Shown here: in pieces, positions 6,159-54,652 of the stretch | Numbering within the stretch: position 1 is the first letter of the stretch | Layout: the number at the start of each line of letters is the position of its first letter | Assembly: GCF_013315695.1 (NCBI RefSeq) | Contig: NZ_CP054353.1 | Length of the DNA stretch: 64,000 nucleotides | Strand: one strand, 5' to 3' | From: Escherichia coli | Lineage (GTDB): Bacteria; Pseudomonadota; Gammaproteobacteria; Enterobacterales; Enterobacteriaceae | Notes under the pieces: generated by a model | Told to the model about the DNA's origin: nothing | Databases searched by the model: none | The model's input: only the letters and a program-made list of their open reading frames with translations | Translations under genes and position numbers: made by a program

Positions 6159-6240
6159 GTTCTGTGTTCCTGTAAATTCGGTGTTGTCGGATGCACGACC
6201 CGTAGGCCGGATAAGGCGCTCGCGCCGCATCCGGCAGTGT

Positions 6241-14942: not shown

Positions 14943-15026
14943 GTAGGCCTGATAAGACGCTATCGGCGTCGCATCAGGCATCCTGCTCAAATGCCGGATG
15001 CGGCGTAAACGCCTTATCCTGCCTAC
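14943..15026. repeat. BIME: two inverted REP palindromic units
   Basis: gtaggcctgataagacgc...gcatcaggc and gccggatgcggcgtaaacgccttatcctgcctac between yiiM and cpxA. Confidence 0.7.
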
Positions 15027-20005: not shown

Positions 20006-20105
20006 GCCTGATGCGCTTCGCTTATCAGGCCTACATGAATTCTGCAATTTATTGAATTTGCAAACTTTTGTAGGCCGGATAAGGCGTTCGCGCCGCATCC
20101 GGCAT
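20006..20105. repeat. BIME/REP cluster downstream of pfkA
   Basis: gcctgatgcgcttcgcttatcaggcctac and gtaggccggataaggcgttcgcgccgcatccggcat; the track ORF 19989..20186 lies across it. Confidence 0.7.
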
Positions 20106-52600: not shown

Positions 52601-53218
52601 TTATTTAGCAAAATACCGATAGTGCCCCACCATCCGCCAGCTAAACAGTACATCTTCTTCCTGCGCGCCTGCGCCAATGTTATGTATCACCAGCGGCGTA
52701 CCGTCGCGGGCGAAGCCATCTGACACCACCCCAATATGTGCCAGCCCGTTATCTAATCGCCAGGAGACAATATCGCCCGATTGATAGTCACTGGGGTTCT
52801 TGCTGGTGGGGCGTGTTTTATCGTGGCGGGTAAACCAGGTTTCCAGATTAGGCACCCGACGGTGATCGATGTTGCTGTCCGGGCGCTTTAACTGCCATTT
52901 TTGCGGGTACGCAGCAAAATTCTTCGCCATATCTTCGTGCACCAGTTTCTGCAAATCGACCTTCTGGCTGCGCAATGCACGGATCACCACATCGGAACAT
53001 ACGCCGCGTTCTTGCGGGACATCACCGCCAGGATAGGTAAGCTGCACATACGCCGGATCGTAAAATAGCGTGCTGCCGATTTGCTGTCTGGCACCGTCTG
53101 CGATGGCAAGGTTGGTGTTGGCCTGGATCTGTACCACGGTTGGTGGAACGGCGGGAGATTTTAAGGAGTGGCTGGTAAATGCCGTTAGCAGGCTGACCAG
53201 CACCAGTGAAGCTTTCAT
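52601..53218 (-). CDS. yijF: DUF1287-family periplasmic protein YijF
   Basis: 205-aa ORF with signal peptide MKASLVLVSLLTAFTSHS. Confidence 0.85.
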   Translation of the reverse strand: MKASLVLVSLLTAFTSHSLKSPAVPPTVVQIQANTNLAIADGARQQIGSTLFYDPAYVQLTYPGGDVPQERGVCSDVVIRALRSQKVDLQKLVHEDMAKNFAAYPQKWQLKRPDSNIDHRRVPNLETWFTRHDKTRPTSKNPSDYQSGDIVSWRLDNGLAHIGVVSDGFARDGTPLVIHNIGAGAQEEDVLFSWRMVGHYRYFAK

Positions 53219-53365
53219 CTGGTTCGTCCGTGAAAATAAGAGTCACAGATTCGACCTTCCGGGCTAACGATTGTTCTGTAGAGAAAATGTCCAGAAGCGG
53301 ATAAAAAATTCCTGAACAACGTGGGAGTTTCAGACGGGTGATAACGTATAAAAAGTGCTCGAACA

Positions 53366-53471
53366 GTCCCCTCTCCCCTTTGGGGAGAGGGTTAGGGTGA
53401 GGGGAACAGGCCAACTCCGGGGCGAATATTTACCCTCACCCCGACCCTCTCCCTGAAAGGGCGAGGGGGAA
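53366..53471. repeat. GC-rich nested inverted-repeat intergenic element (BoxC/RSA-like enterobacterial repeat)
   Basis: ccctctcccc-ttt-ggggagaggg then gggtgagggg ... ccctcaccccgaccctctccc; the track ORF 53022..53414 lies across it. Confidence 0.55.
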
Positions 53472-53516
53472 AAACATGCCCGCAGTGACGAGTGAGCCAC
53501 TTTGCCTGCACTCTCA

Positions 53517-53541
53517 AACTCCCGGACAAGCCGGGAGTTTG
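53517..53541 (-). terminator. Terminator-like hairpin downstream of gldA
   Basis: aaactcccgg-acaa-gccgggagttt, just 3' of the gldA stop; T-tract weak. Confidence 0.4.
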
Positions 53542-53548
53542 GAGTAGG

Positions 53549-54652
53549 TTATTCCCACTCTTGCAGGAAACGCTGACCATACTGGTCGGCTACCAGCAGT
53601 GCGGCGTAAACCTGATCTGGCGTCGCGCCGCCAGGCATGTTGTGGATGGTTTCACCTTCTGCACATGCCGCTTCTGCCACAATTCGCATTTTCGCCGGGA
53701 CATCTTCTTTAATATCCAGTTGAGCGAGAGTTATTGGCAAACCTACCGCATGGCTAAGCGCAGCTACGGTTTCGATTTCCTCCACCGGCGCGTTTTCCAG
53801 CACCAGCTGCGTCAGCGTACCGAATGCTACTTTTTCACCATGATAATAGTGATGCGCGTCCGGGATAGCGGTCAGGCCGTTATGTACCGCGTGTGCCGCC
53901 GCCAGCCCGCCGCTTTCAAAACCAACACCGCTCAAATAGGTGTTCGCTTCAATCACGCGTTCCAGCGCCGGAGTCACTACATGCTGTTCGGCGGCAAGCA
54001 TCGCTTTTTCGCCTTCTTCCAGCAGAGTGTTGTAGCACAGTTCTGCCAGTGCCAGCGCCGCCTGGGTGCACTTGCCGCCCGCCATGGTGGTCGCGCCGCT
54101 ACGAGAGCAAGCACGCGCTTCAAACCAGGTTGCCAGCGCATCGCCGATACCCGCCGCTAACAGACGTGCAGGTGCGCCAGCGACGATTTTGGTGTCGACA
54201 ATGACCATATTCGGGTTATTTGGCAACATCAGATAGCGGTCAAATTCACCCTCATCGGTGTAGATAACAGACAATGCGCTGCACGGTGCGTCGGTAGAGG
54301 CGATAGTCGGTGCGATCGCTACCGGAACACCCATGAAATGTGCCAGTGCTTTGGCAGTATCGAGAGTTTTTCCGCCACCGATACCGAGAATTGCGCCACA
54401 CTGCGCAGTTTCCGCGATGCCACGCAGACGGTCGATCTCATTTTGCGAACATTCACCGCCAAACGGCGCAATTTCTACTACCAGTCCAGCATCTTTAAAG
54501 CTTTTCTCGACAGTGGATTGAGCAAAACCTAAAACAAATTTGTCACCCACCACTAACCAGCGTTCTGCCAGCGGCTTCAGGTATTCGCCCAGACGATTAA
54601 TCACATCAGCGCCCTGGATGTATTTACCCGGTGATTGAATAATGCGGTCCAT
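53549..54652 (-). CDS. gldA: Glycerol dehydrogenase
   Basis: ORF 53549..54691 trimmed to [29 protein letters not shown] for 367 aa. Confidence 0.95.

Follow-up and report, generated by a model that had tools for sequence, protein, structure and literature searches.

BoxC repeats are said to have been treated by Bergler in 1992, by Bachellier in 1996/1999, and by Hoyne et al. in 2000. The family is identical to PIT (potential intrastrand triplex) and to the TMECO triplex motif of Escherichia coli, with the consensus CCCTCNCCC-N3-6-GGGNGAGGG-N3-GGGNGAGGG, whose three blocks can form a hairpin plus a third strand (Holder et al. 2015, PMC4666352). Type A units carry TTA in the second loop and type B units CCG or a TCG-like triplet; in K-12, 23 copies of the motif have been catalogued, with inverted pairs at five loci, and every pair combines one type A and one type B unit (PMC4666352). 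Oligonucleotides of both types adopted an intrastrand purine-motif triplex in vitro, as followed by CD and NMR, in vivo DMS footprinting did not detect the triplex, and sequence variability is raised around TMECO loci (Holder et al., PMC4666352). In the summary of Hoyne & Maher 2002 that is given in PMC4666352, PIT/BoxC is described as having neither promoter nor terminator activity and no effect on polymerase in vivo.

REP sequences, in the form of inverted pairs (BIMEs), share the niche of the inverted BoxC pair, or dyad, described here: both are palindromic, extragenic, and located in the 3' region of a gene, and in other strains a BIME occupies the identical yijF-gldA interval. The two are, however, without similarity in sequence, and the BoxC dyad contains no match to the REP pattern. 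REPs have a RAYT-type transposase partner and protein ligands such as IHF and gyrase; for BoxC we know of no partner transposase or protein ligands comparable to these. ERIC/IRU and other enterobacterial MITE-like repeats are likewise dispersed, intergenic, imperfect palindromes of 100–200 bp that give a long RNA hairpin, but the ERIC/IRU sequence is unrelated and BoxC is built of homopurine/homopyrimidine blocks with triplex potential.

Identification of a Paired BoxC Element between yijF and gldA

The palindrome studied here lies on an E. coli chromosome with the gene order katG-yijE-yijF-gldA-fsaB-ptsA, in a window of 64 kb (the whole stretch of DNA that was analyzed), and the tested stretch is 100% identical to NZ_OZ547117.1. 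The preliminary description, made from the sequence, had placed the repeat between yijF and gldA, a location confirmed by the open reading frames and by the RefSeq annotation of the identical record, with yijF at 52601–53218 (minus strand) and gldA from 53549 (minus strand). Read along the minus strand, the gldA stop codon is followed by an 11-bp hairpin, the dyad, a second hairpin with a T-run, the region upstream of yijF, and yijF itself.

The repeated strings that had been quoted were all located at the coordinates given for them. CCCTCTCCCC-TTT-GGGGAGAGGG at 53369–53391 makes a perfect hairpin with a 10-bp stem, and GGGTGAGGGG at 53395–53404 is matched by its complement CCCTCACCCC and then GACCCTCTCCC at 53434–53455. 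The repeat search also returned an inverted repeat with 39-nt arms (53368–53406 and 53430–53468) that are 82% complementary around a 23-nt center. The 23-mer GGGGAGAGGGTTAGGGTGAGGGG has a single occurrence in the window and was absent from 100 dinucleotide shuffles with up to 3 mismatches permitted; this absence, together with folding beyond that of shuffled sequences (see below), argues that the palindrome is not due to chance.

A regular expression for the published consensus gave exactly two matches in the 64-kb window, at 53369–53403 (plus strand) and 53433–53467 (minus strand), so that two BoxC units lie tail-to-tail in inverted orientation with their 35-nt cores 29 nt apart. The first unit (53369–53404, plus strand) is of type A, with a TTA second loop and a perfectly matched hairpin stem. 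The second (53432–53467, minus strand), inverted relative to type A, is type-B-like, with a TCG second loop; it differs by 1 base from K-12 TMECO #10 and shares its loop with #12 and #20. Between them lies a central spacer (53405–53431), the predicted apical loop region of the long hairpin, which is conserved among the aligned dyads.

The similarity to described BoxC copies extends beyond the cores. In an alignment of 17 units, comprising paired and single K-12 copies, type A and type B units each have a conserved 5' flank of their own, and both halves at yijF-gldA obey this subtype-specific rule. The type A flank, AAAAGTGCTCGAACAGT (53351–53368, plus strand), is common to single and paired K-12 type A copies, whereas the type B flank, which reads …GGCATGTTTTTCCCC on the minus strand (53468–53499), is common to the type B halves at gcvP-ygfF and alx-sstT. 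Conserved sequence is thereby found on either unit outside the 36-nt core, in keeping with an extended unit of ~56 bp. With both halves fitting the published consensus, subtype flanks shared with K-12, and a dispersed family to which they belong, the earlier guess of BoxC proved right, and on the evidence of its sequence the yijF-gldA palindrome is an intact paired BoxC element consisting of a type A and a type B unit in inverted orientation.

The element is larger than first described. Local alignment with the K-12 gcvP-ygfF copy gave homology over 53328–53518 with 162 of 190 positions identical; BLAST homology to this closest paralogue covers 149 bp, and the more sensitive alignment extends it to 190 bp. 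The outer arms added in this way are complementary to each other in both the RNA and the DNA folds. From the span of the homology, the real unit is a dyad with outer arms, an imperfect palindrome of ~190 bp (53328–53518), and not a repeat of 105 bp; of the extent originally proposed (53366–53471), the strings and the position stand and the size was too small.

The length of the paired form invites comparison with RSA, the 150/151-bp enterobacterial repeat, and it is conceivable though unlikely that the dyad is an RSA element or that RSA is the name of the paired form. The 149-bp span of BLAST homology is close to the length of RSA, and the number of RSA copies in K-12 (n = 6) is close to that of BoxC pairs (n = 5); compared by length and count, paired BoxC and RSA are alike in size class and copy number. 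The original K-12 feature table, however, lists RSA (150/151 bp, 6 copies) and BoxC (56 bp, range 51–59 bp, 33 copies) as separate families, and the match in length is lost when the sensitive alignment lengthens the homology to 190 bp. Neither BoxC nor RSA is mentioned in a review of MITEs or in the review by Delihas. The abstract of Bachellier et al. 1999 reportedly describes a new composite element that includes boxC repeats; if so, the ~190-bp long form is probably that composite.

Relationship to Other BoxC Copies and Catalogues

Although K-12 has no BoxC at the yijF-gldA locus, its pairs at gcvP-ygfF, alx-sstT, and fepB-entC have the same inverted A + B layout, spacer, and flanks as the dyad described here. 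The five dyad loci of K-12 are located at 164.5, 624.6, 3046.0, 3239.6, and 3781.1 kb. The gap between cores is 29 nt at gcvP-ygfF and alx-sstT and 28 nt at fepB-entC, and conservation in an alignment of the dyads extends over cores, spacer, and outer flanks alike. The yijF-gldA copy differs in that its type A stem (CCCTCTCCCC / GGGGAGAGGG) is perfect, whereas most K-12 type A copies have one mismatch. BoxC is intergenic at yijF-gldA and at all K-12 loci retrieved.

A count of copies by BLAST, which had been suggested as a check, shows a dispersed repeat and not a unique sequence: of 5426 complete E. coli genomes, 5407 contain related sequence, the median number of places per genome being 16; NZ_OZ547117.1 has 11. 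Nearly all places are chromosomal, only 38 of 76,811 being plasmid-borne.

One half of the element at this locus has been catalogued before. TMECO #514 of E. coli 042 (NC_017626, 4612757–4612792, CCCTCTCCCCTTTGGGGAGAGGGTTAGGGTGAGGGG; Holder et al., Table S8, PMC4666352) is identical to the type A half in the window, and its coordinates are those predicted from the BLAST offset. The strain 042 orthologue is 98.8% identical to the window and has a C-to-T change in its B half which breaks the type B motif, whereas both halves in the window are intact; this change accounts for only one motif having been catalogued at the 042 locus. Both the family and the 042 copy of this locus are therefore already known, the latter as TMECO #514. 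Two changes separate strain 042 and most carriers, which make up the 98.8% class, from the window: an A/G difference in the spacer and the C-to-T change. The window allele with both halves intact is a minority, found in 72 records at at least 99% identity.

Replacement of a REP Pair by the BoxC Dyad

When a 951-bp query covering the locus was used, nearly all genomes matched, most of them at 81% coverage in two pieces. In K-12-like strains, O157, and AVS0223, the shared flanks are exact, the left one ending with …GGGAGTTTCAGA and the right one beginning with TCAAACTCCCGG…, and between them lie ~124 bp of unrelated sequence in the form of an inverted REP pair (BIME). The allele-specific segment in the window is 179 bp long (53335–53513), and its place is taken by the ~124-bp REP pair in the majority of E. 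coli and in other species of Escherichia. A regular expression for the REP core, GCC[GT]GATG…CTTATC[AC]GGCCTAC, had no match at 53200–53600 of the window or in the strain 042 locus. A scan with YijF as query that took a single genome from each species gave five other Escherichia loci, and REPs were present at the yijF-gldA site in every one of them (E. albertii, E. whittamii, Escherichia sp. E1V33, Escherichia sp. MOD1-EC7003, and a divergent "E. coli").

The presence of REPs in all five of these loci indicates that the BIME is ancestral, and since the REP pair lies between the same flanks in K-12, in O157, and in four further species of Escherichia, the dyad is the derived replacement. Identity to the element of at least 95% was found in 626 of 5430 records, and an even sample of the ranking contained orthologous copies in 7 of 60 rows; from these two figures, dyad carriers amount to ~11–12% of complete E. 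coli records. As read from the aligned alleles, the dyad has replaced the ancestral BIME in one minority E. coli lineage that includes strain 042. Canonical REPs occur elsewhere in the window at 6202–6235, 14943–14979, and 20006–20103, the last being an inverted pair, and the strain thus has ordinary BIMEs and is without one only at yijF-gldA.

The variable segment is flanked by hairpins on both sides. The gldA-proximal hairpin (53515–53541, minus strand), directly after the gldA stop codon, has an 11-bp perfect stem, a 5-nt loop, and a short T tract; it is outside the repeat, is conserved in both alleles, and forms an independent fold in the RNA prediction. A second copy near yijF (53300–53330, minus strand), followed by a T-run, is degenerate in the window as well as in K-12; in other species of the genus (E. 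whittamii, E. albertii, and Escherichia sp.) it is intact and reads CTCCCACGTTGTTCGGGAGTTTTTT. The two are related as a direct repeat (53306–53330 and 53516–53540, 76%), and a terminator-like hairpin of ~25 nt stands in direct copies on both sides of the variable segment, be the latter a BIME or a dyad. From this arrangement of the sequence, it looks as if the ancestral gldA terminator had been duplicated around an inserted repeat. The alx-sstT dyad aligns with the window 11 nt further to the left than the gcvP copy does, with CAACGTGGGAGTTTCAGA against CAACGTGCGGCTTCCAGA (14 of 18 positions, 53317–53334), in a stretch that belongs to the flank common to both alleles; this leftward match may be due to chance, or dyads may tend to adjoin similar hairpins.

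The YijF scan also bears on the neighboring gene. Relatives of YijF (DUF1287) with more than 90% identity were confined to Escherichia in the scan of one genome per species, and the next matches, at 40–61%, came from Chryseobacterium/Epilithonimonas, Acidobacteria, Acinetobacter, and Verrucomicrobia, with none in other Enterobacteriaceae, in a search based on query-derived peptide patterns that distant enteric homologues could escape. This taxonomic spread of the sequence suggests that yijF was acquired horizontally by the genus Escherichia.

Origin of the Dyad

At the junctions of the allele-specific segment, the resident sequence and gcvP-ygfF-type ends share identities of 5 bp, TCAGA on the left and TCAAA on the right, and the same pentamers also bound the gcvP-ygfF copy. 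The identities are compatible with microhomology-mediated copying; judged from the bases themselves, they could equally be the terminal bases of the element. We propose that illegitimate or template-switch recombination produced the dyad as a copy of a paralogous, gcvP-ygfF-type dyad. No donor paralogue of more than 89.3% identity was present among the matches listed from ~5,400 genomes, the apparent identity class of "90–95%" consisting of short partial matches, so that the copying event would be old or its donor unsampled.

The gcvP-ygfF dyad, the closest paralogue, itself lies in an indel. Genomes with ygfF and the dyad number 3026 of 5426, and in the remaining genomes (for example, O157 and JA0072) bglA is joined directly to gcvP, with a degenerate REP-like sequence, GCCTGATGCGCTACGCTCATCAGGCCTGG, adjoining the same gcvP terminator. 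The gcvP gene is thus a second locus at which REP-like and BoxC sequences are found as alternative occupants. The earlier suggestion that such elements are sometimes insertion hotspots is consistent with the polymorphism of the yijF-gldA and gcvP loci, and with the raised variability reported by Holder et al. (PMC4666352).

A more far-reaching reading is that BoxC dyads and BIMEs are interchangeable cassettes which compete for hairpin-flanked sites at 3' ends, with the long form of BoxC spreading by a directed process and displacing REP pairs. Spread of this kind would proceed via template switching at stalled forks or through a nuclease or recombinase that recognizes terminator-like hairpins. 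The identical junctions at yijF-gldA and the REP-like remnant at gcvP hint at such exchange, which we nevertheless consider rather improbable.

Insertion of the dyad at yijF-gldA as a MITE actively mobilized by a transposase is also very unlikely. The element has features that such a MITE would have, being ~190 bp long, palindromic, multicopy, intergenic, and polymorphic for presence and absence, and its allele-specific segment is bounded by near-identical pentamers. These pentamers, however, recur at the gcvP-ygfF copy and are therefore not specific to the site, and they look like element termini and not like target-site duplications. Moreover, the dyad replaces a BIME of different length and interrupts no empty site, its copies diverge by at least 11–15%, and the matches listed contained no near-identical paralogue. 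The rarity of plasmid places argues in the same direction, as does the study of Holder et al., in which no association with transposons, phages, or plasmids was found (PMC4666352). The reading as an active MITE is, on balance, weakly supported. To our knowledge, no cognate transposase for BoxC has been described.

Folding and Possible Function of the Dyad

The DNA fold of 53330–53520 has a predicted energy of −39.5 kcal/mol (z = −3.6) and the minus-strand RNA fold of 53330–53560 one of −117.9 kcal/mol (z = −6.7), and in neither case did any of 200 shuffles fold equally well. The RNA folding that had been recommended as a check thus returned one long imperfect hairpin. A consensus fold of five dyads contains 40 pairs, of which only 2 have a compensatory change (covariation term +0.64) in an alignment of sequences that are few and highly conserved; with almost no compensatory substitutions, the alignment holds no evolutionary signal of selection on the fold.

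In duplex DNA, the dyad would be expected to be inert. When it becomes single-stranded during replication or transcription, the predicted folds suggest that it would form a long hairpin or cruciform; alternatively, by analogy, each unit might form a hairpin with a G-rich third strand, as an intrastrand purine-motif triplex. Folding of this kind would make the site prone to rearrangement. The best-supported view of the element is that of a passive, structure-prone intergenic repeat whose main consequence is local genome instability.

An effect on gldA is also conceivable. If gldA transcription passes the first hairpin, the dyad is predicted to become a very stable stem in the 3'-UTR. REPs stabilize mRNA 3' ends, and the stem could, by analogy, take over from the REP pair in blocking 3'-exonucleases. 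Stabilization of the 3' end of gldA mRNA by the dyad is on this analogy a possibility.

The position of the dyad 3' of gldA on the transcribed strand and its very stable GC-rich hairpin would suit an intrinsic (Rho-independent) terminator of gldA, or a bidirectional one, a role that we hold to be highly improbable. No T-run follows the long hairpin, and the scan for terminators gave one weak terminator-like site inside the element (minus strand, 53492–53479, 5-bp stem), against 0.6 expected from shuffles. Other hairpins are found on either side: the separate perfect 11-bp hairpin comes directly after the gldA stop codon, and on the far side of the element is the second hairpin, with its T-run, which other species of Escherichia have in intact form. 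Most strains, furthermore, do without the element at yijF-gldA, and terminator activity of PIT/BoxC was absent from the assays of Hoyne & Maher 2002 in the summary of them in PMC4666352. The reading as the gldA terminator was consequently rejected on anatomy and published assays, in agreement with the initial impression that the palindrome does not resemble a simple terminator.

Least credible of all, to the point of being negligible, is that the dyad encodes a small structured RNA (an sRNA or miRNA-like hairpin) or a small protein, because nothing is annotated at the element in RefSeq, a scan of 53150–53650 found no promoter-like site, and ~88% of strains have no element at yijF-gldA, despite the very stable predicted hairpin, miRNA-precursor models matching in Rfam at E = 0.003–0.005, and open reading frames of 56–130 amino acids that cross the element. 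All 30 Rfam matches are sub-threshold (26–32 bits against gathering thresholds of 72–94), the best being mir-3151 with 31.6 bits against 83, and they were rejected as generic hits to eukaryotic hairpin models that fit any long stem. In Pfam, two of the three crossing reading frames had no match, and the third had a weak one to BfiI_DBD at 17.4 bits, below the 25-bit cutoff (E = 0.004). The 130-amino acid reading frame at 53022–53414 (minus strand), already suspected to be an artefact, is spurious: it has a TTG start inside a BoxC unit, overlaps yijF in another frame, is without a Pfam match, and is unannotated in RefSeq. A protein-coding role was rejected on the Pfam result, this out-of-frame overlap, and the RefSeq annotation.

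With these alternatives weighed, we hold with considerable confidence to the combined account of a BoxC dyad that is a derived replacement of a REP pair, was probably copied from a gcvP-ygfF-type dyad, and would behave as a passive, structure-prone repeat.

Implications

The element adds little new biology, as descriptions of the family go back to the 1990s and it has been biochemically tested and catalogued genome-wide. The new detail is modest and consists of the extent of ~190 bp, the intactness of both halves, the precise replacement of a BIME, and the carrier frequency of ~11–12%. For annotation, the 130-amino acid reading frame should not be called, and the proper label for the element is BoxC pair. 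With its two alleles, BIME or BoxC dyad, the yijF-gldA spacer serves as a marker of a minority lineage of E. coli, and the clean swap of one repeat family for another between identical flanks is a natural experiment on whether such repeats affect expression of the upstream gene.
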